Positions 44,425-64,000 are shown, counted from the stretch's first letter. The stretch is 64,000 bases of DNA from an uncultured Planctomycetota bacterium (GCA_963845755.1 CAWJTV010000017.1:9889-73888), one strand, 5' to 3'. Made by a program: numbers and translations. Notes: generated by a model from the letters alone, not told the origin.

Positions 44425-44497
44425 GGGGACGTAGCTCAATTGGGAGAGCGCCTGGTTTGCAACCAGGAGGTTGCCGGTTCGATCCCGGTCGTCTCCA
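44425..44497 (+). tRNA. tRNA-Ala(TGC)
   Basis: Acceptor GGGGACG/CGTCTCC with G3:U70, anticodon arm CCTGG-TTTGCAA-CCAGG, T loop GTTCGAT; CCA not encoded. Confidence 0.97.
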
Positions 44498-44612
44498 CTC
44501 ATCATAAGTCCCAGTTTTTCTTCGGCTTGCGTAGGCTGATTTGACTGGCGACACAGAATTACCCCTGGAAGAAAAACCGGTAACGAAGCCGGTAGAACCA
44601 GGGGTTACATCC

Positions 44613-45779
44613 ATGCAGCGACATCGTAAGATCCGCATTCCCTCTTACAGACTCCACAAACCGAGCGGCCAAGCCGTTGTCACGATCCGGGGCCGCGACC
44701 ATTACCTTGGTCCCTTCGGATCCGGACCGTCCCGAACCGAGTACGACCGGCTGATCGCCGAATACCTGGCCGGGCAGACGACCGGCCATGCTCACTGTGG
44801 GACGCCCGCGGATCTGACAGTCGCGGAGTTATGCTCAAGATATGTTGATCACGCCGAACAATATTACGTGAAGCGTGGTCGTCCGACCTCCGAGATCCAC
44901 ACGATCCGGAAGGCTGTTAAGACCCTTCGTACGCTGTATGAGCACACGCTGGCGGATGAGTTCGGGCCGCTGGCGCTCAAGACCTGCCGGACACAGTGGG
45001 TCGATGAGGGATTGACTCGACGCGGGGCCAACCGCCTAGCCCAGACCATCAGGGCCATCTTCAAATGGGGCACGGAGAATGAAATCGTTCGCGTGACCAC
45101 ATGGCAAGCACTCACCACGGTAGCGGGGCTGAAGCGGGGCCGAACTCCGGCACTCGATCCCGACCCGGTGCGACCCGTGCCCGAGGATCACCTCAATCGG
45201 TCACTAAATGCCGCGCACCCCATGATCCAGGCAATGATCCGCATCCAGCTCAAGTCCGGAATGAGACCGGGAGAACTGATTCTGCTCCGGGGTGCGGACA
45301 TCGATACCAGCCGCCCCGTCTGGGTCTTCACTCCTTTGACTAACAAGCTCGAGCATCAGGGACGCGAGCGGATAATCCACATCGGTCCCGAGGCCCAGGC
45401 CGAACTGAAACCCTGGCTGCGTTGCGATCCTTGGCAGTTCATTTTCGGACCACGACACCGCCGTGAGTACGATCTTCGTGACCGACTCGCGCCGCGACCA
45501 CGTACCGCTTGGGAAAAGCGAAACCGGAAGCGAAGAGTATTGCGAAGTGTCTATACGGTCAATGGGTACCTGCAGGCGATCCGACGCACCTGCGACCGGG
45601 CCGGAGTGACAAGGTGGACCCCCAACCAGTTACGCCACAACGCTGGAACGCTGTTGCGGGCCAAGTACGGGGTGGAGGCTGCACGTACCGTTCTTGGCCA
45701 CAGCAACATTGGGACGACACAGATCTACGCCGAAGCTGACCTGAATCGAGCTGCAGAGATCATTGGGGAGATCGGCTGA
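44613..45779 (+). CDS. Tyrosine recombinase/site-specific integrase
   Basis: PSYRLHKPSGQAVV..DHYLG N-terminus; GMRPGE, NQLRH, LGHS, TQIY catalytic motifs. Confidence 0.95.
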   Translation: MQRHRKIRIPSYRLHKPSGQAVVTIRGRDHYLGPFGSGPSRTEYDRLIAEYLAGQTTGHAHCGTPADLTVAELCSRYVDHAEQYYVKRGRPTSEIHTIRKAVKTLRTLYEHTLADEFGPLALKTCRTQWVDEGLTRRGANRLAQTIRAIFKWGTENEIVRVTTWQALTTVAGLKRGRTPALDPDPVRPVPEDHLNRSLNAAHPMIQAMIRIQLKSGMRPGELILLRGADIDTSRPVWVFTPLTNKLEHQGRERIIHIGPEAQAELKPWLRCDPWQFIFGPRHRREYDLRDRLAPRPRTAWEKRNRKRRVLRSVYTVNGYLQAIRRTCDRAGVTRWTPNQLRHNAGTLLRAKYGVEAARTVLGHSNIGTTQIYAEADLNRAAEIIGEIG

Positions 45780-45780
45780 C

Positions 45781-46756
45781 ATGGCCAAACGTACGGGAAA
45801 AGGGGCTAAGAAGCGTTCAGGTGGGTCACGGGCCCGAACCCGAGAGCAGGGGTTAGTGACTGCGGGCCAATCCGGCGAGACCCAGCCCGAGACAGGAGTG
45901 CAACCGCCAGTCCCTGAACTCGGAGTTCCAACGAAGAAGTTTCCGTTTCGCCCCGCAAGGCTATTGGTCCACAACCATTCGCCCTCTGATCCAGCGCCTT
46001 ACGCCGTACGCATCGACGCTCCCTATGATCAAGATGACACAGACACGGTCGCCCTTTACTTCACGCCGGAGTCTAGCGAACACCAGGATGAGAATCAAAT
46101 CGTATTGAGGCGATATGATCGAGTATTGACCGCCATTCGTACTTGGTCGGTAAATGCATGCTTAGTTGGAGGATTGCGTGAACAATATCTCCTATCGAAG
46201 GATAACATTGATGTTAAAAAATTTTCACATAGTTGTAATATCTTAGCCGCAGCTCTGGGGGAATTCCTCCCCGATGTCGAAGTCTTTAGTTTCGTGCTGG
46301 TCTCCCGCACTTGCTTGGCTACTCTCTTCGGCCAGCCACTCGAGCAGGTTCCCGAGTGGCTCATGCTCGAGATGCTCTACTGGGCTGCGTGGGGCAAGGT
46401 CAGGCGGTTACGAGGGGAGATCCTTAAGTGTATGGAAGAGATAGCCCCCGTCAAAGCTAGGTGGGAAAAAAAACTACAGGAATTCGAAAGACAACAGGAC
46501 GACCGAAAAATCATATATTGCTACTTTGAGGGAAATCGCTAAGGTTATTGAGAATAAAAAAACTCCACTTACCCAATCTCAGATCGTGACGTATTCCAAA
46601 TATAAGAACTTGGATGAGAATGCGATCAAAAGACCCTTGGCCTGGGCAGTGAAAGCACGACTCTTGAATAAGTATCGCGATCCGCGAGGCTACTACCTTC
46701 CGTACCTTGACCCAGAGCCCAATTGGAAGGCCGCGAGAAGGGGGAGTACACGATAG
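45781..46756 (+). CDS. Hypothetical lower-GC protein with probable C-terminal winged-helix domain (frameshift in an A run near 46508)
   Basis: Removing one A from GACCGAAAAATCA joins 45781-46542 to 46526-46756 (DRKSYIATLREIAKV...LAWAVKARLL...GYYL). Confidence 0.6.
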
Positions 46757-46879
46757 CTCCTCGAAATCAAGTCACGGGCTTCAAGTAATCCAGCAGTCGG
46801 GCGGCAACTTATGGCTTCCCGGTACGGTTAGAAAATGTAAATCCATCACGAGAATATGCAAAGATGGTGTGTACAACAA

Positions 46880-48320
46880 TTCCTATCTTGCTTGACCTTC
46901 TCGGCCGGCGTGTCGTCGAACGCCCGGAGCGGGCGTTGATCAGCTCGTACAACAAGGAGGGCGCATGGGGCGATTCCGGGCGTTCCACCCCGTTGAAGCC
47001 GATTTCGTCGAGGATCGTCAGGTCGAATTCGAAGTAGTAATGCAACCGACGCGGCAGGGTCTGGTCCGCCGGGGCCGCTGTCAGGTATTGCAACCCGGAT
47101 GCGATGGTCTCGTAGCGCACCCGCAAGCCCAGCACACCGGCAGGCTGGCCGATGGCCTTAATCACATGGGTCTCCGACGCCGCTCTGGACTAACCAGACC
47201 AGGTTCTGGCGACGGTGGATGAACTCGGCCCCGGCCAACGCCTTGATCCTCGGCCGATCGATCGCTGCCGCGTTGAACTGCCAATCGAAGTTGGCCAGAG
47301 TCTTGATCTTCGCGAAGTCGTCGGCGCCGATGAAATGGGCGATCCGCCGCTCGCGACGGCCGTCGGCCTGCTCGCTGATCAGCAGCCGTAAGAATTCCAG
47401 GTGCGACAGTCCTTCGCGGTCGGTGCGGCTCAAGGCCGCGTCGAACTGATCGGGCGAGAGCTGGATGCCTAGCGCCTGGAAGTGCTAGTGGGTCATTCGG
47501 CTTGCTCGTGGCCATAACGCTGTCGTTTAAACGCCGGAAAATCACGGCTTGACCCTTCGGTAGACGACTTCGGGAATGGCCACGAGCAACGCGAATGACC
47601 CACTAGCGGACCTTCGGGCAGAACTCCATCCCCTGCAGCGTCTTCTGAGATGATGTTTCGAAGCTTCATCGGGATGCGACTCCCAGTCGCGGAGTTGTTG
47701 GTAATCCGATGTCGTTCGGGGATGATCAAGTCCATGACCAGCCAGGGCGGCAGCCGTTGCTCTTCCTCGGCCAGCGACTCCAGGATGCTCTCATGCCGGG
47801 TCTGGACCGTTAGGCTGCGCGCTCCAGGACCGCGCGGGCTTACTCACCATAGCGGACCGCCCGCTCCAGGCGCCGCGATCAGGTCCTGCGGGGTGTGGAT
47901 ACCTAGCAACACCAGGACGCACTGCGCCTGGACCCTGCCGTAATGCAGCGCCTCGAGCACGCCCTCATGGAGCCGACGGCCTGGCTCGCCCAGGTTTACG
48001 AACGGCTATGCCAAGTCCGCCCGCCACGGTCCATCCTCGCCGGGCCGGTACTCCTTGAGTACGCTCCGTTCCGCCCGGACTTGCCCCGCAACAGGGCATG
48101 CCGCGAATCTCCCCGAGCAGCCGTAGGCGACCAGTTCCTCCTCAAGGAGCCGCGTCGGCAGGACACTGCCGATGTACTACCATGGCACCGAGTAGCCGTT
48201 CTGGCCGTAGGTGATGAGGCCCGCGACATCGACCGTAAGGTAGATCACCGGGGCGACGTCATAGGCGCGGTCCGGCAGCGCGATCGGATCTGTGGGAGGT
48301 GGGAGAGTTCCTCCTGATGC
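46880..48320 (-). pseudogene. Decayed IS21-family element (istB and istA fragments)
   Basis: LSHLEFLRLLISEQ..KTLANFDWQFN..QNLVWLVQSGVG, LTILDEIG, LLYELINAR in broken frames; the istA assignment upstream is weaker. Confidence 0.75.
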
Positions 48321-48463
48321 AACTGCACCGGCGTTTTGCCGATGGAGCGCACATTGTGCGCACCAACAGAGCTAAAGGGCTCACTGACCGATCCTCACCG
48401 ATCTGATCCAATCATATCTGATGCAGCCGGCAATGGTGCCACGGGCATCAGGAGAGTCCTCTC

Positions 48464-48793
48464 ATGATCGATGTCTCAACAGAGCATACATTCCCTTTAT
48501 CGAGACCGCCCAATTGGCTGGTGGGACGTACCGGGCGGCCCGTCTCCAGAACGACTTTGGAGCGATGGGCTAAGGTCGGTGTCCGGGGTGGCATCAAGCT
48601 GGAAACCTGCCTGCTTGGATACACGAGAGTTAGCAGCCTGGAGGCGGTAAATAGGTTCATGGCCTTCCTGAACGGGGGATCGCCGGCTGAAGACCACACC
48701 TTAGCTCCGACTCCGCGACCGAACCGAACGCTTCGCCAGAGACGCAAGGCGAGCGAAGAGGCTGCCCAGAAACTCCAGAGGGGCGGTTACTGA
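48464..48793 (+). CDS. DUF1580 HTH protein (excisionase/AlpA-like)
   Basis: TLERWAKVGVRGGIKLET..G..RVSSLEAVNRF; AGGAG RBS. Confidence 0.85.
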   Translation: MIDVSTEHTFPLSRPPNWLVGRTGRPVSRTTLERWAKVGVRGGIKLETCLLGYTRVSSLEAVNRFMAFLNGGSPAEDHTLAPTPRPNRTLRQRRKASEEAAQKLQRGGY

Positions 48794-48833
48794 CACTTCC
48801 TACAACCGTTTCGAGGCCTCTTTCCCCAAATCA

Positions 48834-48875
48834 TTGACGGCCGCCCCTCCCCACTAAGAGATAGGCGGCCGTCAA
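48834..48875. other. 12-bp inverted repeat downstream of DUF1580
   Basis: TTGACGGCCGCC...GGCGGCCGTCAA. Confidence 0.6.
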
Positions 48876-48893
48876 GAGTCAGGAGCTCGTCAC

Positions 48894-49214
48894 ATGACCC
48901 GATTTGCCATCCTACCGCGTCTGGTCCCACACCGCAACCCCGGATCCCGCGATACAAGCTCCTGCGGGTGTCGTCCCCGGGAGTCAGTGGCCGACCGCTT
49001 TCGTGCCCGCCAGCAGGCTGAGGCTGAGCCCGAGGACTCTAGAGAGTTGCAGAGCAAGGTCTACGATCCGACGGCGACACGATTCCTCGAACATCTCGAG
49101 CCGGCGATCGCAAGCCAATACTGGCGACGCCAGCGCCATCTCTTCGGTTGGCCGCCGGCCCGGCGTCGATCCCGCCCGGGTACCGTGGGCGTCACGACGT
49201 CCAAGTCCGCGTGA
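48894..49214 (+). CDS. Hypothetical protein
   Basis: AGGAG RBS, in the operon direction; no family recognised. Confidence 0.45.
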   Translation: MTRFAILPRLVPHRNPGSRDTSSCGCRPRESVADRFRARQQAEAEPEDSRELQSKVYDPTATRFLEHLEPAIASQYWRRQRHLFGWPPARRRSRPGTVGVTTSKSA

Positions 49215-49567
49215 TGCGACATGCACCACGCCGCCACCATGACGGCCCCCGGGCAGGTCAGAGGTGGCCCGCTGTCTTCCCGGGCCGCCCATCACCAGGC
49301 CGGCCACGCCAAGTCCGAGGCCAGCCGTCGCCGTTGGGAAGGACTCGGCCTGATCGTGCTTGCCATTGATGCGAGACTCCACCCGGGGCCGCGTCATCGG
49401 CCACCAGTGTCGCCCAACCTGCAGGAGCCTGTCGAGGGCTCACCCAGTCCAGGTCGGCATCGTGGTTGCCTTGACCTCGTACCCGACTCGTCGTCACGAC
49501 TTTTCTGACCTACATCGAATCGACGTTTGACTTACTGATTTACCTCCTGATTGGAAAGGGCTCTCCC

Positions 49568-49915
49568 ATGCGCCTCAAAGTTTCATCCGGCGCTGTGCCG
49601 CCAGGCATGTACCACGCCAAGTTCCTCGGAGTCGAGGCCGTGACCAACGATCAGTACGGTGCAGGTCTCAAGTTCACTTTCCAGGTCGTGCGTGGGCCGC
49701 ACTCCGGCCAGAAAGTGGCCCGTACGACGGGCTGCTCGCCTTCCCTGAAAAACAGCCTCGGCAGGCTCCTGAGCGGAATGCTCGGCCGCTCGTTGAGCCT
49801 GGACGAGGAGATCGACGACAATGACCTCGTCGGTCGCGAGTACATGATCGTTGTCGGCACCACCGAGAGCGGAGGATGCCGTATCGAGACCGCAACGCCG
49901 CCGCCGACCGAGTGA
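49568..49915 (+). CDS. Putative phage-type ssDNA-binding protein (DUF669-like)
   Basis: VPPGMYHAKFLGVE..LKFTFQVVRGPHSG beta-rich pattern; directly upstream of the primase. Confidence 0.6.
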   Translation: MRLKVSSGAVPPGMYHAKFLGVEAVTNDQYGAGLKFTFQVVRGPHSGQKVARTTGCSPSLKNSLGRLLSGMLGRSLSLDEEIDDNDLVGREYMIVVGTTESGGCRIETATPPPTE

Positions 49916-49927
49916 GTCGGCTTTAGT

Positions 49928-49964
49928 GGGCGGTCGGGCGATGGCAGTCGCCCGACCGCCCTTT
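49928..49964 (+). terminator. Hairpin terminator/attenuator between the SSB-like gene and the primase
   Basis: 14-bp stem GGGCGGTCGGGCGA/TCGCCCGACCGCCC plus TTT. Confidence 0.55.
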
Positions 49965-49993
49965 GCCCCCGTGTCTCACCAAGAGGGTCAGCT

Positions 49994-52551
49994 ATGAGTG
50001 TACCCGAACCGATAGCCGAGAGCCAAACGCTCTCAACCGCCCGTTCGTACGCCGAGCGCGGCTGGTCCGTCCTGCCCGTGCACACTATCCATGAGGGTCG
50101 GTGCACCTGCGGCGACGATCGATTGCGATAGCATCGGCAAGCATCCGCTGACACCCAATGGCCTGAAGGACGCCAGCGCGGACAGCCGAGACGATCGAGC
50201 GATGGTGGACCGAAGCCCCGCCCGCGAACGTCGCCATCCTAACCGGCCCCGAGTCGGGCCTGTGGGTCCTGGATCTGGATGGGCAGGCAGGTGTCGCAGC
50301 CCTGGCGGAGCTCGAGGCGGAGCATGGTCCGTTGCCGTGGACGCCGACGGCGCGAACGGGCGGAGGCGGCAAGCATCTCTACTTCGCCTTGCGGGCCGGC
50401 AACGAGATCCGGAACGCGGTCAAGATCGGCGGGAAGCCGATCGACACCCGAGGATCGGGGGGGTATGTCCTCGCGCCTCCGAGCCTGCACGCCTCCGGCA
50501 ACCAATACGAGTGGGTGATCTCGCCCGACGAGACCCAGCTGGCCGAGGCGCCCCCCTGGCTGGTGGACTGGGTAACCTAGACTCGCGTCCGGATCACGAG
50601 CGTCGGAAGCGTCACCGGGAAACGGGATCGGGAAGCTCCGCGTCCGAGCCGACGACATGGAGACCGCGCCAGGGTCGTCCGAGGGTCGACGTCACGACGA
50701 AGCCGCCCGACTGGTCGGGGCGGCCCTTGCCCACGGCTTGCCCGCCGACGTCATCGAGGAACAGGCCGTCGAATGGGGTGGCCGTTGCACGCCGCCGCTC
50801 CCGGGGCTGGAGATTCGGCGGATCGTCCGGGACCTGGCCAAGAAGCATGCCGCCAGGGAGGCCGGGCCGGCCCGACATGTTGTCGCGAAGATCGACTGGG
50901 AGCCTCCGCTTCCCCTCGACGAGTGCGCAGCGTCCGGGTTTTCCGACCTGGGCCCTGACGGACTGGCTCCGGGATTTCGTCGAGGCGGAAGCTGAGGCGA
51001 CGCAGACCCCGCCCGACCTGGCCGGCATGCTCGTCCTTGCCGTCCTTTCCGTGACGTCCGCTCGAATCGTGGTGGTACGCATCAACGACGGGTACAGCGA
51101 GCCTCTCAACCTGTACATCGTGGTCGCTCTCCCTCCGGCCAACCGCAAGTCACCGGTCTTCCGCGATTGCACTGCCCCCATCTCCGAGTTCGAACGCGAG
51201 CAGGTCAAGTCCCTCACGCCGCAGATCGCCGAGGCCAGCACCCGACTGGCGATCAACGAGGTACGGCTCGCCAAGGCCCAATCCGATGCCGCCAAGGCAG
51301 ACGCCCAGAACCAGGAGACGCTGATGCAGCAGGCCGTCGAGCTCGCCAGGGAGATCGCGGAAACGAGAGTACCCAAACCCCCACGCCTCCTGGCCCAGGA
51401 TGCCACGGCCGAGAAGGTCAAGAGCTTATTACATGAGTATGTGGGACGCATTGCGATGATGGGCGCCGAAGGGGACCTGTTCGACACCATGGCCGGACGA
51501 TACGGCAACCGCGGTAGCGCGAATTTCGGCGTCTACCTGGATGCCCATAGCGGCGATGATATCCGCGTGGATCGCGTCGGCCGGCCCACCGAGTACGTCC
51601 GGAATCCTGCGCTGACCCTCGGACTCACCGTCCAGCCCGAGGTGATCCACGGCCTCTCCGAGAAGCCGGGATTCCGAGGATTGGGACTTCTGGCCCGGCT
51701 CCTTATCGTGATCGCGGAGAGTCTGGTCGGCCGCCGGAAGTCGAACCCTCCTCCCGTCCCGCCCAAGGTCCGGGACACCTACGCCCAGAATGTGCATTCC
51801 CTTCTGGAGTTGCGCCCCGAACAGGCGAGTTGCTCCGAGTACGACCCGCACGAGTTGCGGCTCTCGCCGGAGGCCGAGCGGCTGCGGCTGGATTTCGCGG
51901 ATTGGCTCGAGCCTCAGCTCGCGCCGACCGGCGAGTTGGGGCACATCGCCGACTGGGCGGGCAAGCTGGCCGGCCAGGTGCTCCGGATTGCCGGCAACCT
52001 GCACCTGGCCGACCACGCCGGTCACCCGGCACCGTGGGATCTGCAGGTCGCGGGGGAGACCCTGGAGCGGGCGATCGCGATCGGTCACTACCTGATCGCC
52101 CACGCCCGGGCGGCCTTCGCCCTGATGGGCGCCGATCCGGTCATCTCGGATGCCCGCCACATCCAGTCCTGGATCCTCCGCACCGGGATGGACTCGTTCA
52201 CCCGGCGCGACCTCTTCGAGGCCACCAAAGGACGGTTCAAGGAGGTACGCCGCCCTGGAACTGCCCCTGGACTGCCTGATCCGCCACGGATACCTCCGGG
52301 AACGCCCGGAGGATTCTCGATCGGGCCCTGGCCGGAGGCCCTCAACAACCTACGACGTGAACCCCCTGGCCCGATCGCAGAATTCGCAGTATTCGCACAA
52401 TCTGGCGGGGAGGCCCGGCGACGGGCTGTCCGACCAGGTTTCAGCGAGTAGTGCGAATAGTGCGACGGGGTCGGCGTGCGAGGGTCGGCCGCCCTCGCCC
52501 TCGCCCTTGCCCTCGGTCGTCCAAGATGAGTTCGAAGAGGGCGTTCTCTGA
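49994..52551 (+). CDS. Bifunctional primase/polymerase (Prim-Pol) + PriCT-like + DUF3987 (YfjI) helicase-like protein, several frameshifts
   Basis: YAERGWSVLPV, GKHP, NVAILTG..VLDLD, TGGGGKHLYF, DTRGSGGYVLAPPS; GRRHD..CTPPL; EPLNLYIVVALPPANRKS, IRVDRVGR, GLLARL. Confidence 0.85.
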
Positions 52552-53569
52552 TCGCCCTCACGACGGTTACCAACCATCGCCTCGCCGCACTTCTCCTCCA
52601 TGTTCGACATCCGCTCGGCGGGACTTGGGGCCGGTCCCGGCAACCCATCCTCGCCGCGGTGTCGAGATGGTGGTCATCGGTGTGGTCGCTGATCGAGACA
52701 CCGTCGCACTATTCGCAGAATTGGCGGATCGGGATCAGGTCGAGTTCGGAGAGCCATTCTGCGAATTGTGCGAATTGTGCGCAGGGGTCTTCACGTGCAC
52801 GACCAAGGAGGGCCCCCTCCTCGCGCGTCGCCTTGAGGATGCGTGCGATTGCGGCGATTCCGCCTGGGCTCAGGTCAATCTCGATTGGCCGGATCACGAG
52901 ATTCGGAATGATCGTGGTCTACGAACTTGCTCTATCTTAGGAGGATATTCCTATTAATAATATCATTCATGATATTATTAATCCCTTAATTCCCACTCAG
53001 GGCCCGCTCGAGTCGCCCGCGGAGTCGCTCCTGGAGCAGCTCCGCGAGCTTGGGATCGACGTGAAGGCCGAGGGAGGGAACCTTCGCTTCCGTGCCCCGA
53101 AGGACGCCCTGACGATCGGGCTGAAGCAGCAGATCGTCGAGCACAAGTCCGAGGTCCTCGCGCTCCTCGGCCGCGGTGATGGACCTTCAGGGGCAACACG
53201 AAGTGCAGGTCCCGGATCGGAACCGTTGCCCGAGAAGGCGGACCGGGCGGTTGATCGTCCACGAGACCGATCCGATCCCACCGGGCCCGGCGAGGCTGTC
53301 CCGATTTCCGGAGTGATGGGACATTCGCAGAATTCGCAGAATGGGGCCGAGGCCAGGACCGCGGTCCGGTCCGAGGCCGGCGAAGGCCCCCTCATTCCGA
53401 TTAGCTCAGGCCCTTCGCAGAATTCGCAGAATTCGCAGAATCTTGGGGCATCGAGCCCGACGGTCGATTCTGCGAATTGTGCGAATACTGCGAACGGGTC
53501 GCCCGCCCCTCAGGACCGGGTTGGGCCATGGCCTACCGCCCTTTTTGCGAATTGTGCGAATAATGCAAA
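52374..53569. repeat. Iteron cluster 1: inverted triple 9-mers (TTCGCAGAA)
   Basis: Arms at 52374/52439, 52703/52756, and nested 53323, 53414 / 53467, 53542. Confidence 0.9.
52953..52982. other. AT-rich perfect 14-bp inverted repeat
   Basis: ATTAATAATATCAT-TC-ATGATATTATTAAT. Confidence 0.85.
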
Positions 53570-55959
53570 GGGCTTGCGCACTCTTCTCGCCGATATCCAC
53601 TCTGATGGGGGAGATGATCCGGCGAATCGTTCGACGACGACGTTGGAGTCGCCGCCCGAATCCGGGCTGGCCGGCGGCTCGATGAGCGAGATCTGCGTCC
53701 CTTCGTCGGATCATGCCATCGTCGAACTGGCGAACGAGAGATTCGTCTACCAGAAGAACTGGTCAGGCACCCGCCTCGCAGGCGACTGGATCGCAATCGA
53801 CACCGAGACCGCGAAAATCCAGGACCATGAAGTCCCGCCTCTGGCCCTGGCTTCGGTCAGCTCCGGGCAAGCTCACGCCCTGGTCCATCCCGATCGGTTC
53901 GCGCAATTCATCCTGGTACACCGCCATTGCCACTTCGTCACTTTCCACGTGGGCTTCGATTTTTGGGTCGTCCATCAACACCTCGAGCAGCGTGGCGAGG
54001 TGGAGGCGATCGAATGCTGGTGGGCGATCGCGGAGGAGGGCCGCCTGCACGACTCGATGCTCCTCGACGCCCTGGTCCGCCTGGCCCGGTCCGGTGCTTA
54101 TCCCAACCATCGCGATCTGGGCACCGTCGCCGGGGAGTACGCAGGGCTCGCGATCAACAAGGACGACCCGTACCGGCTTCGTTACGCGGAGATTATCGAC
54201 CGGCCGTGGGATCAGGTGGATCCCGGATTCTTCCGTTACGCGATCGGCGACTCCATCGCGACCTGGCGGACGGATTCGATCCTCCGACCCATGGCGATCG
54301 ATCTGGCCCGAAGCCATGGCGTCACCGACCAGGCGATTGCGAAATATGGGCCCCTGACGGAAACGATCCAGGTCAAGGCTGCGATCGTCCTCGCGGCGAT
54401 CACCAGGCACGGGATACACCTCGATCTGGCCGAGGCGGCGAAGGTCCAGGGGGTCCTCCGAGAGCGTCTGGATGAGGTCGTGGGCCATTTACGGGCCTGC
54501 CCCGAGACGGCCCACTTATTCAAGACCGATCGCAAGGGGGGGCTGCAAATGACCGCAGGGGGACTACCGAGCCTGAGCAGGAAAACGCTCCAGGAGATCC
54601 TCCTCGGCGTGGTCGATGAGATCCGTGCCGACCAAGAGGGCTTCGAATTCGAGATCCCGAGGACGCCGAAGGGCGAGGTCTCTACGGCCACGGAACAGTG
54701 GGCGGAGCTCGCCGAGCACCATCCGTTCCTCCGCGACTGGTCTGCGATGGCCGAGACGTCGAAGCTCTGCCAGTTCTTCGGCGGCCTCCAGTCGAAGATC
54801 GTCCACCCGCGGTACACGACTATGGTCCTCACCGGGCGGACCTCATGCAGCGGGCCGAATATCCAGCAGATGCCACGCAAGGCCGGATTCCGGGAGATCT
54901 TCCGGCCTTCGCCGGGCCACTTCTTGCTGGCCGTGGACTACAAATTCATCGAGTTGGTAGCCCTGGCGGCGATCTGCGAGGCCCGCTTCGGCAAGTCAAC
55001 ATTGGCCGACGTCATCCGCGCCGACCGGGATCCTCATGCCTATACCGCGGCGATTCTACTGGGACTGGACCCGGATCAGTTCCTCGCCCTTCGCGAGACC
55101 GATCTTGCGAAGTTCAAGGAATGGAGGCAGATGGCCAAACCCCTGAATTTTGGAATCCCGGGTGGGCTCGGGCCGGCGACGCTCGTGGCGTACGCCCGGC
55201 GAACCTACAACGTCCCGATGACCGTCGAGCAGGCCGGGGAATTCCGCCGGCGGATGATCACGGAGGTCTACCCCGAGTGGGATCAGTATTTGGCCGATGA
55301 CCCGATGACGAACCTGGCCTCGAGCCTCGGGACCACCGCCGACGCCTGCTGGGCCCTCCTCGACTGGAAGGGCGACCGGTCGCCGGCCCTGGTGCATGCG
55401 ATTCGGCGGGTCGTCCTCGGCGCGACGCTTCGCGCGGACGGCCAACCGTATAGCCCGCGATTCCTCGAAGGCATCTGGAACGGTCTGAATATGCTCAATC
55501 GCTCCGAGTCTCGCGCGCCGCTCCTTGCCGGCCGCCGAGGGAGCGTGGAGCTCTGTCGCCGCCTCTTCGATTCCGGGGTGGCGACCCTGACGGGTTGGAT
55601 ACGGGGCCGTGTCACCTACGCCCAGTGCCGGAACACCCCGTTCCAGCACCTGGCCGCGGCCGGCGGGAAGCTGGCGCATCTGGCGGCTCATGCGGGAGGG
55701 CTACAGGATCATCGGCTTCGTCCACGACGAGATCCTCGTCGAGTTGCCCGATGAGGGTGGATTCGTCTATGAGGGAGTTGTGGATCGCGTCGTCGAGATC
55801 ATGTGCTCGGAGATGGCGGACGTGCTCGGCGGCAAATTGCCGGTCGGCAGCGAAGCGACGTTGTCCACGTGCTGGAGCAAGGACGCCAAGCCGATCGAGC
55901 CTCGTGACGGCAAGATCTATCCATGGCACCCGGATGCGGATGGAGGCGGTCCGACGTAA
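53061..55959 (+). CDS. Family A DNA polymerase with 3'-5' exonuclease (frameshift near 55678); alternative start at 53682
   Basis: IAIDTET ExoI, TGRTSCSGPNIQQMP, AVDYKFIELVALA motif A, RQMAKPLNFG motif B, FVHDEILVE motif C. Confidence 0.92.
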
Positions 55960-56323: not shown

Positions 56324-56674
56324 GTCGCATTATTCGCAGAATTCGCGAAATTTCCGGACGGACGAGCTCTCGTAGGTCGTAAGGGGGATTCTGCGAATTC
56401 TGCGAATTCTGCGAAGGGGTTTCCAAGGATAGCTCTGAGATTCAGGGCTTCGCACGCCGTGGGCGTAGCGAGGCTCGATGGTCTTCGGGAGGCGACGATC
56501 GACGACCCCCGTGAGGAGGTGAGCGGCTGGATGGAGCATGATATCATTCGATGTTTGGCTCTCCTCCGACCACGAAACCTGCCCGCGAAATCCGCAGAGT
56601 TTGCAAAAATGCTGGCGGGCCGACCTCCGAACGCTCCCAAGACCGAATTTCGCGAATTCTGCGGATTTTGTTGA
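56324..56674. repeat. Iteron cluster 2 (two units)
   Basis: Arms at 56324/56388 and 56582/56647. Confidence 0.9.
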
Positions 56675-56841
56675 CGGTTTCAGGTAGCGATTATCCAGAT
56701 AGCCCGACCTCGCCGCGCCACGGTGCCCGCCAGGACCTTCCTCCCGATCACGGACTCGTCGCGAGATCAGAGCGAGTGGACCTCCAACTCGCGGTTCCCG
56801 ACAAAAATTCAGGAAAAATCGCGCGAATAAACTTTAGAGCC

Positions 56842-56869
56842 TTGACGTCTATATGATATTGATTATACT
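56842..56869 (+). promoter_or_regulatory. Sigma70-like promoter
   Basis: TTGACG-16 bp-TATACT upstream of the RHH gene. Confidence 0.6.
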
Positions 56870-56921
56870 GAAAGAGAGGAGTATGCCGCTTTGCTCGGCC
56901 TCAGACATGGAGGATAGGGTT

Positions 56922-57122
56922 ATGCCCCTTAGTCGGACCTGTATCCCGCTGCGATCAACCCAGCTCGAGACGCTCAGGAGCCTGTCGAAAGACAGCGGCG
57001 CGCCCGTGTCGGAGCTGATCCGACGGGCAATCGATGCCTACCTGGCGACGCGTCTTGCGGGCTCCGTCCCGGGAAGGGACATCCCTGCGACCTGCCAGGA
57101 GGGACCTGTTCCAGCATCTTGA
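56922..57122 (+). CDS. Ribbon-helix-helix (CopG-like) regulator
   Basis: RTCIPL..QLETLRSLSKDSGAPVSELIRRAIDAYL; GGAGG RBS. Confidence 0.85.
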   Translation: MPLSRTCIPLRSTQLETLRSLSKDSGAPVSELIRRAIDAYLATRLAGSVPGRDIPATCQEGPVPAS

Positions 57123-57305
57123 GCATCTCGCTTGTTCCTGACGGCAAGGAGGCCGCACGGATGGCATCGGACTCGTATTTCTGGCTCGCAGCGATCATCA
57201 TCCTGGCGATCCTGTATCGCCGGGAGTACAGAAAACTGCTCGCTCCGACCAGAGAGCCGCGAACTTTCGACAGAACGGAGTGCGACAGATCCAGGGAGGG
57301 AGATC

Positions 57306-57950: not shown

Positions 57951-58207
57951 ACAAGCTCGACGGGCTGGGCGGAGCCCGAAGACCTGGAGCTCCGAAGGGC
58001 TGGAACGGCTCCGCACCGCCGTGTTGGCGAAGCGGCCCTGGGAGCTGACCGCGCGGTCCGAAGACGACCGAAGGGAGGGCCCGCTCGGCCCGGAACGGCC
58101 GCTGCGGGCAAAAAGGCCAGAAGTCGGTCCGTGAGGTGAGGGCAGAGGTCGCCGGAGTCTTCGCGTTGATTCACGAGATGATCGCCGCCCGCAGGCCGCT
58201 GAAGTGA
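57907..58207 (+). CDS. Small basic protein with a GP(K/R)TxEG(K/R)ARS motif (HGGxSTG-like; frameshift near 58050)
   Basis: SSEGLERLR..AKRPWEL then RGPKTTEGRARSARNG in the next frame. Confidence 0.55.
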
Positions 58208-58306
58208 GGTCGCCTTGAGGCCGGTTTCAGTCGTCTTAACATCCTGGCGATCGTTTGGACCACGTCCTGATCGCCCTTTCGTTCGGAGGATTCGCCCGTG
58301 TCAAGG

Positions 58307-58711
58307 ATGACCGTGACCATCCCGCTTCCCGACTCGAGGATCTTACACGACGTGCTTCGGCTGTGCGATTGCGTCGATGCAGTCCGGGCTCGCCAGCCGG
58401 CAGGCCCTGGGGGCTATTGCCCGGCCGACGACACCATCGATCGGGAGCCCCGGGAGATCGCCGATCTCCGCGATCACCTTCGGGTCCTCCCGGACGATCA
58501 TCAGGCGCAGATCCACGCGATCTACTGGATCGGACGCGACCTGAAAGCCGGCGCGGACCAATACGCTCAACTTCACCGATACGCCCTGGTCACCGATCTC
58601 GGGGATTCCGGAGCGGCCTATCTGGCCGGTAAGGTCAATCTCGGTGATGGCCTGCGGTGCGGCTTGCAGAAGCTCGGACTCCTCAACGGCCGGATGCCGG
58701 TACGGCCTTGA
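58307..58711 (+). CDS. DUF3775-like protein
   Basis: LRVLPDDHQAQIHAIYWIGRD...YLAGKVNLGDGLRCGL. Confidence 0.65.
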   Translation: MTVTIPLPDSRILHDVLRLCDCVDAVRARQPAGPGGYCPADDTIDREPREIADLRDHLRVLPDDHQAQIHAIYWIGRDLKAGADQYAQLHRYALVTDLGDSGAAYLAGKVNLGDGLRCGLQKLGLLNGRMPVRP

Positions 58712-58747
58712 GGACACCTGTTTCCCAACTTACTGGAGGTTGACGTC

Positions 58748-59134
58748 ATGATGGATACAGTGATCGGATCTCCCGAAACCGACTTGGCCTCGGCTGAACT
58801 CTCGTCCGTGGTCAAGCGACTTGTGACCATGATGGACAGTGACGATGAAGCACAGGCCGGTGGGGCGGCCAGCGCCGTCCTCCATGTTGGATATGGGATC
58901 GCCCGGGCCGCGCTCTCGGTTCTCCATCGCAGCAAGGTCACCTTCCACCGGCTGAACCTGATCGCCGTTCTCGCCGAATTCGGATTGTACGCGGGCGACG
59001 AGGCGGTCAGCGTGCTCGGCGAGATCTCCGTCTACGACCCGGACGAGGATGTCCGCTACCGTGCCATGCTGGCCCGCGATCTGATCAAGGGCCGACAGCG
59101 GCTGGACGAGGATTATGACGCTCTATCAATGTGA
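58748..59134 (+). CDS. Small HEAT-repeat-like protein
   Basis: LVTMMDSDDE..AASAVLHVG and DPDEDVRYRA; GGAGG RBS. Confidence 0.6.
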   Translation: MMDTVIGSPETDLASAELSSVVKRLVTMMDSDDEAQAGGAASAVLHVGYGIARAALSVLHRSKVTFHRLNLIAVLAEFGLYAGDEAVSVLGEISVYDPDEDVRYRAMLARDLIKGRQRLDEDYDALSM

Positions 59135-59830
59135 TCGACGGGGCTACCGCCGGGGCACGGCGAGGACAACGACGCTGGTGGCTGGGCCCTTAAGGCCCGG
59201 CACAATGTCCTGCGACACCAACGGCTGGAGGAGGTTCTCGATTGATCATGGCGTGATGGTCCTGGCCGGTGGCGATGCCTGAATGGCAGGCTGCCGGCCG
59301 GCCAGATACGGTAATGTCGGCAACACGCAGGAATGACCAGGGTCAGCTACCTATAAGGGAGGTGACGGAGGGAGGGGTATGCGCCGAGGACGGCGGCCCT
59401 TACAGCACTTGATCAGCGGTTGGTCTGTCCACTGAGAGTCGGTCCCGTCGAGGAATGGGTCCTTTCCCGATCGAGTTACGAGGCCGCAGAGGCCGACCCA
59501 GGAGGGACTGCTCCCGTCGGTGTTCGCTGAAGCGAGAAGGGGGTCGGACTGGGCCTTGGGCGTCCCAGCCTCGTCGGAGCTCGCATCGCTCCCGGCCGAT
59601 CTCGGTGCGGTCGTCTTGATTGGACGTTGCGGGTCGGGTCGCTGCCCACAGTCGATCGGGCTCGGCAACACCGGGGTAGGCGGATGCGAGACCATGCTGG
59701 GCCCTACCCCCGGCAATGACCACCGGGTAGCCTGACGGGAATCCCGGCGCGGCTTGCCTGACCGGCGCGTCGCCCGGCTGTTGCTGTCCTGACGATCGTG
59801 TGACGCCATTCCGTGACGGGATAAACGGCC

Positions 59831-60805
59831 ATGAACCGCCGCGAGTTTGTCGGGAGTTCCTTATCCACTGCCGCCGTCCCGCAGGCGTCCCAACGCGTCG
59901 CCTCCGACGTCGACGCCAACGCGGGCGGGGCCATCGTCATCGAACGCCACTCGGACGGACGACCGCATCGCGACCGGGTGCTCGCCGTCGTCTCGCCCCA
60001 TTCCGACGACTTCACCATCTTCAACGGCGGGCTCGTCGCCAAGCTGATCGACGAGGGCTACAAGGCCTATCTGATCCGCGTCACCAACGACGACATGGCG
60101 GGCCCGGGCTCGGTCGGCCATACCGTCCTCGCGAACGAGGAGGACAAGGACCGCCTCGTCAGGCTCTTCGGATTCGCGGGCTCGTTCGACCTCAACTACC
60201 CGAACCACAACATGGACAACACGTCCAGGGCCGAATTGAAGAGCCGGTTCATCTTCCTCATTCGCCTCCTCAGGGTCGATACGGTGATCAGCTTCTCGCC
60301 GTGGGCCCACTACGAGGAGAATCCCGACCATTACATCACGGCCAGTTGCGTCGAGGCGGCCTGCTGGATGGCGGGCCGCGACAAGGATTATCCGGAGCAC
60401 TTCGCGGCCGGCCTGACGCCCCACGTCGTGAGCGAGAAGTATTACTACGGCCGATGGGATCCGCGCTCGGATCGGGTCGTCGACTGGGCGATGAACCGCA
60501 TCGTCGACATCGGCCCGTACGTCGAGAGGAAGATCGACGCGCTCATTGAGAACCGGGCCCAGGGCCCGGCCGGAGAGAACGGGGCCCGGCTGCGCCGCCG
60601 CCTCGCGGCGCAGGGGCTGAAGCTCCCGCTCCTCGGCGATGACGACGACTCCGCGAACCGGGCCTTCATCCGCGAGTTCGTCCTGCGCTTCAATCGTGCC
60701 CTCGGCCAGCGGCATGGCCTCGCCTACGCCGAGCCCTACTTCCACATCGGTCGCGAGCCCGACCTCGTCGAGGAGTACGTCCACCAGCACGCCGTCAAAC
60801 GATGA
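59831..60805 (+). CDS. PIG-L/LmbE-family deacetylase with Tat-like signal
   Basis: MNRREFVG; SPHSDD; NPDH; VDIGPYVERKIDAL. Confidence 0.88.
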   Translation: MNRREFVGSSLSTAAVPQASQRVASDVDANAGGAIVIERHSDGRPHRDRVLAVVSPHSDDFTIFNGGLVAKLIDEGYKAYLIRVTNDDMAGPGSVGHTVLANEEDKDRLVRLFGFAGSFDLNYPNHNMDNTSRAELKSRFIFLIRLLRVDTVISFSPWAHYEENPDHYITASCVEAACWMAGRDKDYPEHFAAGLTPHVVSEKYYYGRWDPRSDRVVDWAMNRIVDIGPYVERKIDALIENRAQGPAGENGARLRRRLAAQGLKLPLLGDDDDSANRAFIREFVLRFNRALGQRHGLAYAEPYFHIGREPDLVEEYVHQHAVKR

Positions 60806-61210
60806 CGCGCGCTCGCCCGGCATGAGCAATATTCCCGACGCCCGGGATACGCGACTGAACTCGATCGATAGCCGACGAGCCACCGGGCCGACCTGAATCC
60901 CTGGGAGGCCCGGAAAGCCCTGGAGCGACGCTGGACCGGGCCCAGGCGAGGTCTACCGGCTCCTGCCATGCGCGCCGTCGTGCGAGCCCCCGGAAACCGA
61001 CCAGGTTCCTTCCGTCGAGAATCGCCGCCCCAGTTGGTCGGGTGCCGGACGCTGGCCGCAATCCGGGTCAGCGACGGGCGTGGGGTCCGTGATGCCTGGC
61101 ACCGGAAGCCTCGCCAGGGTCGTCCTCCCGGCTTCTTGGAACCCTGGGCGGGACGCCGGTCATGCATGGTTGCGGGCTTCGAATTCCCAAATTCTTTCTT
61201 TCGGAAACCC

Positions 61211-61520
61211 GTCAGCAAAATCCGCGATATTCGCGAAATTCGGTCCGCAGGGCATTATCGCGAATTACGCCGGGCCTTTCGGAAGGTGATCGGGACCACC
61301 TTCACGTCCCCCTGACTCTTCAGGAACCGTCAGCAAAATCAGCAATATCAGCGAAATTCGGTCCGACGGGGCATTTTCGCGGATTTTGCTGATTCTGCTG
61401 TCACGACCCAGAGTGATTCTCTCCCTCGGCCCCAAAGTGACTCAGATGCATCACCGAGTTCCTCGCGGCACCGGTCCGATGAGCCCGGCGGGAATCTCGC
61501 GAGTAACGCGAATCCTGCGG
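61211..61520. repeat. Iteron cluster 3 (two tandem units plus an extra inverted arm)
   Basis: Arms at 61211/61254, 61329/61373 and 61494. Confidence 0.82.
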
Positions 61521-61783
61521 ACGATTCTTCCGGCAGGTGCTGGCCGACCTGAGCGCCGTGATCGGCGTCTCTTGGCGCCGGATGGCATGCCAGCCGCGTA
61601 CCCGGATTAGCAGCCGAAGGAGTCCGGCGTCGGACGTCGGTGGGCTACTATCGCATCCCAGCGCAGGCCCCGCAGACGGCTCCGAGCCTGTTACGGCCAC
61701 TCGTAGTAGTGGTTGGAGAACGAATCGGCTATCCTGGGCCGATTCGTGCGATGGAATCGTCGCTCTCCCACCCCGGAGGTCCC

Positions 61784-63020
61784 ATGCATCGGCTCCCCTC
61801 TGTGATGGCGTCCCTGCTGGCGATCGCACTGATCGGCCTTTGCCACCCGGCGAACGGGCAGGATCGCGTCCGTCCCGCTGGCCGCCAGCCCCTGATCCGT
61901 GGCGACCAGCGGGTCGTCATCGCGATGATCGACGGTTTCGGCACCGATTATCTCGCGTCCAGCGACATGCCGGCCCTGAAGGGCATCATGGCCAGGGGGT
62001 TCTCCAAGACCGTCCGCGGCGTGATGCCGTCGGTCACGAACGTCAACAATGCGTCGATCGCCTGCGGCGCCTGGCCCGAGGAACACGGGATCACGGGGAA
62101 CTCGTACTACGACGCGGCCCGAGACGAGCTCGATTACATGGAGAGTGCGGCCTACATCCGGGTGCCGACCGTCTTCCAGCGCGCCGCGAGCCGGGGCGTC
62201 AAGTCGGCCCTGCTGACGGCCAAGAAGAAGACGCTGTCGCTGCTGTCGCCCGGGACCGAGATCGCAATCGCCGCCGAGACGCCGACGCCCGAGGCCGTGG
62301 GCCGCTATGGGCCGGCCCCGCCGATCTACAGCCGCGAGATCAATTACTGGCTCTGGGAAGTCGCCGTCGACATCCTGAAGAACCGCCCCGAGATTCGCGT
62401 CGTGTACGTCCACACGACCGATTACCCGATGCATACCTGGCCGCCGTCGGCCGCCGAGTCGAAGGAGCACCTGGCGCGGCTCGATGCCCTCATCGGCAAG
62501 GCCGTGGCCGCCGCGCCGACGCCGCCTTCCTGATCACCGCCGATCACGGGCTCAATGCCAAGACCCGCGGCTGGGACCTGGCCAGGGCCTGCAAGAAGCG
62601 GGGGCTGGAGCTGCGGTTCGCGTTCTCGGCCGAGCGCGACCGGTACGTGAAGCACCACCGGAACCTCGGCGGGGCCGCCTGGGTCTGGCTCAGGTCGCCG
62701 CGGACGCGCCGCGTGCCACCGAGATCCTGCGGGGCCTCGAGGGCGTCGAGGCCGTCCTGACGAGGCAGGAGGCGGCCCGGCGATTCCACCTGATGCCCGA
62801 GCGGATCGGCGAGCTGATCGTCCTGGGCGACAAGGACACGGTCTTCGGGGACCTCGATGCCGACTTCGAGGCCCTGCCACCGACCTTTAGGACCCACGGC
62901 TCGCTCCACGAGACCGAGATCCCCATGATCATCTACAACGCGTCGGGGACGCTCCCGCCAGCGGATCGCCTCCAGTATAACTTTGATATGACGCGCGACC
63001 TGTTCCAGGGCGGCCGATGA
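61784..63020 (+). CDS. Alkaline phosphatase superfamily enzyme, phosphonoacetate hydrolase (PhnA)-like (frameshifts near 62515 and 62700)
   Basis: MIDGFG, MPSVTNVNN, HGITGN, TTDYPMH, ITADHG, RTHGSLHE; N-terminal signal peptide. Confidence 0.82.
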
Positions 63021-63330
63021 CGGTATCGGCCGCCGCCTGGGCTCCCGGAAGCATCCTCCGCTGGGTCGCCCCCGGTACTCCTGGCCACGCCGAGGACATC
63101 TCATTCGCATCCCCGTGGACAGGTGGCGAGCGAGGCCAGGTCTTCCGAGGTGAAGTGGTCGGAGGCACGTGATCGGCTCGCCCCGAACGGGGAATCGGCT
63201 AGCGCCTTTGCCTGCGCGGGTCGGCCTGGTCGACGACGCACCAGGGAGCTCTCTTCGCGGCCCGATGCCCGCCGATACGCCGTTCGCTCTCAACTCGTCA
63301 ACGGTTACCGCCGGTCAGACCGCGACGCCC

Positions 63331-63768
63331 CTCGCAATATTCGCACAATTCTCAGAATTCAGGTCGCGACACGCTCGCGATCCTCGAAGGTCCGAGAACG
63401 CCTCCCGGAACCATGACCACCGCCCCATTTCTGCGAATTCGGTGAATTCTGCGAGTGGGTCCGCAGGTCGAGGATTGGCGGATCGCCGACCGTATGCCGC
63501 CGGGGGCTGTCGGTCGCCGATTTCATGATGGCGCGAGATCGCCGCCGCCGGGCCAGCCACCGAAGTAGTCCGGTCCTCGGAGTCGTCTCCGCGCCGTCCG
63601 GGCGGACCATGACCTCGGGCCCACCACCGATCCGGAAAGCGATGCCCGTCGCAATATTCGCACAATTCGCAAATTCCATGTCCTGGCCGGCTCCCGCCCC
63701 TCGCCATGCTGGGGACCCGCCTGCATCGAGGCCGCCGCCGTTTTCGCGAATTCTGCGAATTCTGCGAA
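63331..63768. repeat. Iteron cluster 4 (two units)
   Basis: Arms at 63331/63428 and 63648/63741. Confidence 0.9.
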
Positions 63769-64000
63769 GCAGTCCTCCGGTCGGGGAGTGAGCGCCCTGA
63801 TCGATGAATGGAAACAGGGCGGGCTCGACCTTCCGGGGTTCGGATGCGGCCCTCGTCCTCGTCCCTGGATCCCGACCGTCCTCAGGCGGCGTAATAGCCG
63901 ACGACCTTGCGGATGGCCGCGGCCACGCTCCGGACGTACGCGCGTTCATCCCCTCGTGGATCGTCACGCGGACACACGTCTTCAGGATCGCCTCGGCCTC

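Follow-up and report, generated by a model that had tools for sequence, protein, structure and literature searches.

The stretch of DNA analysed here (hereafter the window) comprises 64,000 nucleotides from the genome assembly of an uncultured Planctomycetota bacterium (GCA_963845755.1, CAWJTV010000017.1:9889-73888; G000:C17:9889-73888 in the contig names used below). Its right end holds part of an integrated island which starts at a tRNA-Ala gene and encodes a tyrosine integrase, a DUF1580 helix-turn-helix protein, an OB-fold protein, a primase-helicase and a family A DNA polymerase (PolA). These five protein genes all lie on the plus strand. A preliminary description, made from the sequence, had listed the same genes, including a PrimPol-DUF3987 protein and a PolA with a proofreading exonuclease, together with their common orientation; both the list and the orientation were confirmed by ARAGORN, Pfam, AlphaFold and Foldseek, and sequence motifs. 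The principal features are given below in window coordinates.

44425-44498, plus strand: tRNA-Ala(TGC), integration target (ARAGORN)
44456-44499, plus strand: attL (left attachment site) core, 44 bp identical to C5:822947-822990 (short-word BLAST)
44541-45779, plus strand: tyrosine integrase, 412 aa, intact open reading frame (Pfam PF00589, E 2.4e-16; phrog_1, E 9.8e-34)
48464-48793, plus strand: DUF1580 helix-turn-helix protein (Pfam, E 8.3e-10)
49568-49915, plus strand: OB-fold, DUF669-like protein of single-strand-binding type, 115 aa (sub-threshold Pfam, AlphaFold, Foldseek and viral-library matches)
49994-52551, plus strand: PrimPol-PriCT-DUF3987 primase-helicase with tail DEFEEGVL (DUF3987, E 6.4e-99)
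52375-53573, no strand: candidate ori-like region, iterons around an AT-rich palindrome (repeat search)
53001-55959, plus strand: PolA, with TubC_N-like domain, iteron-bearing linker, 3'-5' exonuclease and polymerase (Pfam, motifs)
56325-56680, no strand: second iteron cluster, 3' of PolA (repeat search)
63332-63767, no strand: two further convergent iteron pairs (repeat search)

Insertion site and extent of the island

The tRNA-Ala(TGC) gene is the sole tRNA that ARAGORN calls in the window, and the attL core spans it from the anticodon loop to one base beyond the tRNA 3' end. When the tRNA region was compared with the genome by short-word BLAST, only one strong extra match emerged, an exact 44-bp copy at C5:822947-822990, on the minus strand and 24.9 kb from the end of contig C5. 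No tRNA is called by ARAGORN at this position, which has the appearance of a classical attR. The sequence of the two ends, both identified, indicates that a tyrosine integrase inserted the island within the 3' half of tRNA-Ala(TGC). The preliminary description was right to place the integration at this tRNA; it had proposed looking for attR beyond window position 64000, where C17, with a length of 73,888 bases, stops, so that the element is cut there, and the second copy of the tRNA 3' end was found on C5 instead.

The C17 and C5 ends can be linked because a genome of the same genus, G401, carries the left-flank genes, tRNA-Ala and the C5 right-flank genes on one contig. In G401, the tRNA-Ala is separated from the shared right flank by 8.4 kb, an interval which contains no island gene and no integrase. 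The island therefore measures at least 19.6 + 24.9 = 44.4 kb plus an assembly gap, in place of the 19.5 kb first described, with BREX and Mrr genes on the far side. No suffix-prefix overlap was found between the C17 and C5 ends, and among contig ends only that of C17 is iteron-rich. Neither an internal copy of the 44-bp core nor a second integrase was found in either assembled part. Just outside attR lies an insertion sequence (IS) element (C5:821400-822800), seven more copies of which, at 93-95% identity, are found on C1, C3, C6, C20 (three) and C21; it is followed by a kinase-nSTAND1 protein of 1020 aa.

Replication proteins

Pfam and PHROGs were run on 33 open reading frames (ORFs) of the window part and 24 of the C5 part (57 island ORFs). 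PHROGs assigned only integrase, DNA helicase and DNA polymerase among the 33 window ORFs, and many island ORFs are without any match. The OB-fold protein (ORF 49568-49915) matches DUF669 below the cut-off (Pfam E 0.0023). Its AlphaFold model, derived from 5 sequences, is an OB fold (pLDDT 81) that matches PrgE of pCF10, a plasmid protein resembling single-strand-binding protein (SSB; Foldseek E 8e-4, TMq 0.61). The viral library contains 83 matches to this ORF at E<=0.001, including DUF669 proteins and one annotated SSB.

The primase-helicase is assembled in six pieces separated by 5 frame changes. Its N-terminus starts from ATG 49994 and is followed by a short piece with GKHPLTPNG, the Prim-Pol domain (50167-50577, E 3e-38), PriCT_1 (50576-50992), DUF3987 (in frame 50091-52451, Pfam E 6.4e-99, a different frame from that of Prim-Pol) and a C-terminal piece at 52252-52551. 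In PMC11724360, PriCT-DUF3987 is reported to be a 5'-3' helicase which binds its PrimPol.

The polymerase was assigned to family A through PF00476 and phrog_17. ORF 53061-55754 matches DNA_pol_A (E 1.8e-18) and, at its N-terminus, TubC_N (E 5.1e-9) in Pfam, and carries the exonuclease motifs AIDTET, HVGFDF and YAIGD along with polymerase motifs A and B. Motif C (HDE) comes after a 1-nt insertion near 55655 and lies in frame 55666-55959. The insertion was defined against a paralog on C2, at KLA|LWRL, and the site is uninterrupted in a 70%-identical homolog (P0005). Across 22 aligned homologs, the exonuclease residues DxE, FD and YxxxD, the D..E of motif A, RQxxKxxNFGxPGG of motif B and HDE of motif C are invariant. 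The subfamily is abundant in metagenomes, with 318 proteins at E<=1e-10 among 8000 candidates scored. Its best matches among solved structures are to a Pol I (8jrb, E 1e-16) and the apicoplast PREX polymerases (5dku and relatives, E ~1e-9), and a phmmer search of the Protein Data Bank with the 97-aa C-terminal piece gave no match. Among 120 listed homologs, 13 are named as DNA adenine or N6/N4 methylases or are fused to one (polymerase-methylases P0026, P0030, P0034, P0035, P0044, P0048, P0056, P0058, P0061, P0063, P0067, P0107 and P0109). The host's own PolI is located on C41. The helicase-primase, the polymerase and the SSB-like protein form a trio; no clamp or clamp loader is present in the island replication set, and to call it a near-complete replisome, as was done at first, is an overstatement.

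Frame changes in the assembly

Frameshifts in PrimPol and PolA, which the preliminary description had linked to possible inactivation, are indeed present. They are judged to be assembly noise, silent on function, because essential genes of the genome are broken in the same way. rpoB is split over two frames with 1 break (C34:79366-83015; six-frame family search), rpoC into three pieces with 2 breaks (C34:567489-571586), dnaE into two pieces with 1 break (C33:84022-87148) and carB into two pieces with 1 break (C11:563330-566394). Four uvrA copies (C1, C33, C36) have 1, 1, 2 and 2 breaks, and host polA, in a single frame, has 0. About 11 breaks in about 27 kb of conserved genes (about one per 2.5 kb) stand against about 15 in the 44 kb of the island. 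Decay of the island, as an explanation for the latter breaks in PrimPol, PolA, BREX and other genes, was rejected on account of the similar density in rpoB, rpoC, dnaE, carB and uvrA. The six frame changes that affect helicase and PolA each shift the phase by +1, which fits single-base insertions by the sequencing or assembly method, while rpoC shifts both ways. Synteny of the host part of the window with G401 is limited to 41006-44499 and is too short to be used for measuring the assembly error rate. Among public reads, a single run (labelled soil metagenome, 0.07 of words) was retrieved; it yielded four identical 151-nt pieces and some short dissimilar ones, uninformative on frameshifts, depth, junctions or habitat. 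In practice, pseudogene or split-gene calls anywhere in this genome are unsafe.

Iterons and a candidate origin

The iteron of the island is a 27-nt unit in which a 9-mer is repeated three times in tandem. With a tolerance of up to 5 mismatches, the 27-mer occurs 10 times in the 14.27-Mb genome, always within the island and never on its C5 part. The ten copies form five convergent pairs (52375/52756, 53415/53467, 56325/56388, 63332/63428 and 63649/63741). Copies in the ori-like region stand at 52375, 52441, 52697, 52756, 53322, 53415, 53467 and 53543, and the cluster 3' of PolA consists of the pair 56325/56388 and weaker copies at 56581 and 56648. An AT-rich palindrome (52923-53000) lies between the helicase stop at 52551 and the docking domain of PolA (~53019); it reaches 85% A+T in a genome of 64% G+C.

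As read from its sequence, the 9-mer is free of stops in all six frames, and therefore the iterons run through the coding sequence of the helicase and PolA linkers. They encode SQNSQYSHN ... SASSANSATG in the C-terminal linker of the helicase and SQNSQNSQN ... ANCANTANG in the N-terminal linker of PolA, and homologous proteins from other samples carry the same iteron-derived peptide traces. In L115, a relative at 70% identity, this iteron recurs at matching positions, both in the PolA linker and 3' of PolA. An iteron of another kind is found in the paralogous C2 element, where it flanks that element's own AT-rich palindrome just upstream of PolA. Iterons and palindrome together have the layout of an iteron origin, and the region may function as one. 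The layout is reminiscent of lambda, whose ori lies inside gene O, and of P4, which has ori and crr sites with iterons bound by the alpha protein.

Defence cargo on the far side of the gap

The C5 part, read from the contig end toward attR, holds a repeat protein, then BREX, then an Mrr-type enzyme and a PDC-S36 defence candidate. The repeat gene (C5:845800-847600) encodes repeats of ~74 residues (ILAWADAH...GRWP...) with ~65% DNA identity to one another; it extends as far as the contig end, has no Pfam match and is the likely cause of the contig break. PADLOC identifies BREX by PglZ (1226 bits), PglX (1126 bits), BrxA, BrxB, BrxC, BrxD and BrxHI, most of which are split among several frames, so that PglZ, the PglX methyltransferase and the BrxC ATPase are found together with accessory Brx proteins. 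The Mrr-type type IV restriction enzyme is intact. The predicted cargo of the whole island is anti-phage defence (BREX, Mrr and the PDC-S36 candidate) plus sugar and phosphate enzymes.

The preferred reading is that of a non-viral replicative island integrated at tRNA-Ala, which combines defence cargo and an iteron origin with a helicase-primase/PolA/OB-fold module derived from phages. This reading is regarded as probable, if only by a little.

Virion genes and related loci

Pfam and PHROGs matched no head, tail, packaging, lysis or other virion family among the 33 + 24 island ORFs, and no family for capsid redirection, small terminase or cos/pac functions is present among the 57. Relaxase, coupling-protein and type IV secretion system (T4SS) families likewise have no Pfam match among the 57 ORFs, no dedicated six-frame search having been made for them. 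The statement that capsid, terminase, tail, relaxase and T4SS genes are missing, made earlier for the window, holds among its 33 ORFs, and the downstream scan then suggested yielded no PHROGs virion category in the 24 ORFs of the C5 part. A genome-wide six-frame search placed Terminase_6N on C28, C37 and C11 alone and detected neither TerL_ATPase nor Phage_capsid (HK97-type capsid). The TerL and portal proteins of PolA phages have no match in the genome (tblastn).

Loci that pair a primase-helicase with PolA recur, as the preliminary description had proposed looking for. Among genomes of the same order, 14 of 120 contain a match at E<=1e-40; in a sample of the phylum, 3 of 400 do so at E<=1e-20 under a stricter filter. 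A search of genome contigs with a single PolA protein returned one distant locus only. The C2 locus (C2:18000-34000; L016, L017, L116) adjoins tRNA-Gly(CCC). Besides integrase pieces and DUF1580, it encodes a Sak4-like AAA_24 ATPase, a primase-helicase of zinc-finger/Toprim-DUF3987 type and a PolA that is 47% identical and open over 927 aa; an IS200-like gene and a 2805-aa FG-GAP protein come next. The G328 locus is composed of integrase, ligase, nuclease, helix-turn-helix protein, primase and PolA, followed by SNF2, GmrSD, a DUF1156 methylase and HEPN-DUF499. Two loci are found in G518. The first (G518-A) has a RecT-like protein, primase-helicase and PolA, then QueC, DndB-like proteins and helicases; the second (G518-B) has a tRNA-Phe fragment, integrase, an excisionase-like helix-turn-helix protein, primase-helicase and PolA. 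Three loci, C2, G328 and G518-B, thus have integrases, and near G518-A there is a serine recombinase. None of the five genomic loci (window, C2, G328, G518-A and G518-B) has a credible virion match; a packaging-category match at the C2 Sak4-like ATPase was read as a P-loop cross-match and rejected. Defence-type cargo lies downstream in three of the five, in G328 and G518-A directly downstream of PolA.

Two observations concern other tRNA-adjacent segments. An att repeat for the far end of the G518-B element was not found; at G518:C1:3163900-3183200 (L143, L144), a direct repeat of ~88 nt, made of the 3' part of tRNA-Phe and 49 nt adjacent to it, brackets a 19-kb metabolic-gene segment which sits between the intact tRNA-Phe and the integrase of the PolA element. 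A third tRNA-adjacent element in the genome of the window (C7:12100-36000; L019, L020) lies at tRNA-Arg(ACG) and encodes an integrase 42% identical to that of the window and a reverse transcriptase (RVT_1), the rest being mostly unannotated.

The arrangement in G518 bears on the unity of the island. A tandem composite of two or more unrelated islands at tRNA-Ala would include a small satellite-like replicative element, from the integrase to ~59 kb, and a separate BREX/Mrr island, and the polymerase would then be unconnected to the defence cargo. tRNA genes collect tandem islands, and the G518 PolA element lies beside a tRNA-Phe 3' fragment, with the 19-kb segment before the intact tRNA. All 10 iterons of the present island are confined to its left part, and its G+C content at third codon positions (GC3) is host-like from 59.8 kb on. 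These observations are countered by the lack of an internal att core and of a second integrase in both assembled parts, and by the defence cargo that directly follows PolA in G328 and G518-A too. The composite, which is not exclusive of the preferred reading, is considered possible though not probable.

The same loci allow a different role for the enzymes to be weighed, in which PolA and the helicase serve host repair or defence, or neighbouring DNA-modification systems, rather than replication of the element. The polymerase-methylases among the PolA homologs (13 of 120 listed), the modification-type defence genes downstream at three of the five genomic loci, and the repair activities of a PrimPol derived from a mobile genetic element, reported in PMC11724360, are in its favour. 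However, a function in replication is indicated by the iterons and AT-rich palindrome beside the genes, by the integrase next to them and by the placement of phage homologs in replication modules; the replication genes also match no known defence family in PADLOC. This role is thought very improbable.

Possible helicase-polymerase coupling and a proposed model of replication

The helicase and the polymerase may be physically coupled. A C-terminal [FY]EEGxx follows a variable linker in 10 of 21 aligned helicase homologs, the window piece ending in DEFEEGVL, and a TubC_N-like N-terminal docking domain is found in 27 of the 120 listed PolA homologs. Equal lengths and sources suggest that at least 6 helicase/PolA pairs share common contigs. 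Complex prediction of the PolA TubC_N-like domain with the helicase tail gave a score of 0.32 against 0.06 for the best control, a result which the prediction tool grades as weak support. Of 157 solved complexes, 116 reach the mark applied, as do 2 of 215 mismatched pairs; at scores <=0.60, it is reached by only 18 of the solved complexes plus both passing mismatches. The runs agree in at least 82% of contacts, and the pLDDT of the partner is at least 52.

Under the preferred reading, the island would excise and then replicate itself with a phage-derived, T7-style trio of proteins. An initiator would bind the island-specific iterons (9 bp x 3) around the AT-rich palindrome that separates the helicase gene from PolA. 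The DUF3987 helicase would be loaded, its fused AEP PrimPol domain would prime synthesis, and the proofreading PolA would carry out elongation. PolA would probably be held to the helicase through binding of its TubC_N-like domain to the conserved C-terminal FEEGVL tail, and the OB-fold protein would coat single strands. As to transfer, the island could hitch-hike in the manner of a satellite, or it may no longer move.

A more far-reaching version joins several proposals into one. It would see a non-viral lineage of integrative elements in this planctomycete-type order, equipped with a minimal replisome of its own and acting as the carrier of defence systems based on DNA modification (BREX in the present island, systems of Dpd-like and DUF1156/DUF499 type in its relatives). 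In the same version, the [FY]EEGxL helicase tail would dock into a PolA TubC_N-like domain borrowed from the world of non-ribosomal peptide synthetases, the origin would extend across the DNA that encodes the flexible linkers of the two proteins, and replication on induction would amplify the defence cargo. Taken as a whole, this combination is rather doubtful.

Viral relatives and points against the island

Several observations weigh against a non-viral replicative island. In IMG/VR, relatives are encoded in 252 of 311 candidate stretches, and of the four closest contigs scanned, three (L036, L038 and L082) have a terminase, L038 also a portal and a tail fibre; their PolA relatives are 38-43% identical. 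In L082, as in the window, the gene directly upstream of PolA encodes a primase-DUF3987 helicase. The helicase-PolA pair is a standard phage module, since its relatives sit in terminase-bearing viral contigs. The context at the other loci covers only 20-40 kb each, and the gap of unassembled DNA between window position 64000 and the C5 end could hold virion or transfer genes or a second att. The iterons may be operator or partition sites rather than an origin, with two pairs located between convergent gene ends and one cluster upstream of a ribbon-helix-helix gene. The contact between helicase tail and PolA is tentatively proposed from the predicted complex. With 5 frame changes over 2.6 kb, the PrimPol gene exceeds the average of the genome and might conceivably be truly damaged; ORF calling in a frameshift-ridden, high-GC assembly can also miss broken genes.

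These viral relatives favour the view that the element is an ordinary temperate prophage, whole or defective, whose virion module lies in the gap or was deleted and in which BREX and Mrr are morons or later insertions. Besides the PolA relatives in contigs with TerL, portal and tail fibre, and the gene order of L082, the succession of integrase, small regulators, SSB-like protein, helicase and polymerase is that of a classic phage early region, and the gap between the C17 and C5 ends may be of any size. Yet no virion-category match occurs in 44.4 kb on either side of the gap; TerL and portal of PolA phages find nothing by tblastn, and the six-frame terminase and capsid searches match other contigs only. 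Adding ~20 kb of virion genes and ~15 kb of BREX would bring the size above 65 kb, and the four other genomic PolA loci are also without virion matches. A prophage is accordingly held to be unlikely.

Comparison with known elements

The usual view is that the polymerase of integrated islands and satellites is borrowed from the host or a helper. If the preferred reading is true, a recurrent virion-less island with helicase-primase, proofreading PolA and SSB-like protein widens the replication autonomy of non-viral mobile elements, which matters especially since the cargo consists of large defence systems. A literature search, limited in coverage, found no description of this island type, of a TubC_N-bearing PolA or of such islands in Planctomycetes.

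P4-like satellites and phage-inducible chromosomal islands (PICI) share with the island a tRNA-adjacent tyrosine integrase (here 44541-45779), att repeats (here the 44-bp core), a primase-helicase of their own with iteron-type sites (here around a candidate origin) and the lack of virion genes. They differ in that satellites use the host polymerase, whereas the island encodes a proofreading PolA and an OB-fold protein; in size (~7-20 kb versus at least 44.4 kb); and in helper hijacking, as no gene for capsid redirection, small terminase or cos/pac function was found in the island. By analogy, it would work like a P4/PICI-type element that brings its own polymerase, failing on size and helper-hijack features. 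Anti-phage cargo, as in the island, is reported for such satellites in excerpts of PMC9122126. The earlier proposal of an integrative element or satellite built on PolA is upheld as far as the PolA-based replication genes and the lack of virion genes in 44.4 kb are concerned, and is not as regards satellite size and helper hijacking.

The T7-type minimal replisome resembles the island set in its helicase-primase, exonuclease-positive PolA and small single-stranded-DNA-binding protein. The T7 gp4 helicase has an acidic-aromatic C-terminal tail, to which the island helicase tail can be likened. However, the island primase is an AEP PrimPol and the helicase a DUF3987 protein, not of the Toprim-DnaB type, and PolA has a TubC_N-like N-terminal domain. 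Among the PolA phage modules (L036, L038, L082), the helicase-then-PolA order is that of L082; unlike these phages, the island is integrated and has no terminase, portal or capsid gene in its assembled parts.

Mobile elements with A-family polymerases have already been published, in PMC10061031 (Rice 2023) and PMC9618062. The former describes the CcPol-MP PolA-SSB primases of staphylococcal cassette chromosome (SCC) elements, and the latter DNA polymerase genes in some marine satellites. SCC elements likewise are chromosomal mobile elements in which an A-family polymerase and a small OB-fold protein occur together with a helicase and a recombinase. CcPol is truncated, without most of the exonuclease domain, and acts as a primase together with MP; the island PolA keeps all exonuclease motifs and is accompanied by a separate AEP primase domain. 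Further differences are the tyrosine, not serine, recombinase and the position of the OB-fold gene upstream of the helicase gene, not beside the polymerase gene.

Casposons and pipolins are also integrated elements which encode their own DNA polymerase and integrase. They are defined in excerpts of PMC5695915 and PMC4779613 by family B polymerases (PolB), protein-primed or primer-independent, in contrast to the family A polymerase and dedicated primase of the island. The island is neither of the CcPol-MP type nor one of the PolB-based self-synthesizing elements. The label self-synthesizing in the preliminary description has to be dropped, as it is defined by protein-primed or primer-independent PolB and the island has a separate AEP primase and an ordinary proofreading PolA.

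A possible relative is the virus-linked Hot Spring/Aquificae-like/apicoplast PREX cluster of PolA, treated in excerpts of PMC10201439 (Czernecki et al. 2023), where PolA of the cluster is fused to AEP primase-polymerases in Planctomycetota. The best solved matches of the window PolA include PREX polymerases. Unlike the cluster, the window subfamily has an invariant NFGxPGG in motif B, about a quarter of its homologs carry the TubC_N-like domain, and the island primase is a separate gene fused to the helicase.

Other features of the window

The remaining features of the window part are the following.

45763-46542, plus strand: 259-aa ORF in a low-GC stretch (GC ~0.50; composition)
47484-47607, no strand: 32-nt inverted repeat, 94% complementary, with a 60-nt spacer, between leftward and rightward small ORFs (repeat search; GC3-based gene calls)
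56853-57122, plus strand: ribbon-helix-helix (CopG-type) protein (Pfam RHH_1, E 1.5e-5)
58298-58711, plus strand: DUF3775 protein (Pfam, E 4.6e-9)
59831-60805, plus strand: PIG-L family deacetylase, cargo (Pfam)
61206-61526, no strand: degenerate iteron-like repeats, also resembling stretches of C2 and C47 (repeat search)
61640-63020, plus strand: type I phosphodiesterase/nucleotide pyrophosphatase in two frames, 61640-62533 and 62484-63020 (family search)
63795-64000, minus strand: terminal part of a gene truncated where the contig stops (the last 204 bases of the window show 86% DNA identity to C7:34901-35104)

The 259-aa ORF has no match in Pfam, PHROGs, NCBIfam or PADLOC, and a protein atlas was uninformative for it and for a 272-aa ORF. 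The inverted repeat at 47484-47607 could, from its position, be an operator or regulatory switch of the element. An AT-rich stretch (56825-56884) precedes the ribbon-helix-helix gene. The gene end at 63795-64000 has no Pfam match, and the sugar aminotransferase look of the neighbouring C7 ORF is unsupported by family search. A paralog of the PIG-L deacetylase, at 39-59% identity, is found on C5. To the left of the island, on the minus strand at 37498-40911, a single ORF of 1137 aa combines an M16 peptidase pair with a pyridine-nucleotide-disulphide oxidoreductase and the dimerisation domain of the latter, an unusual fusion if real.

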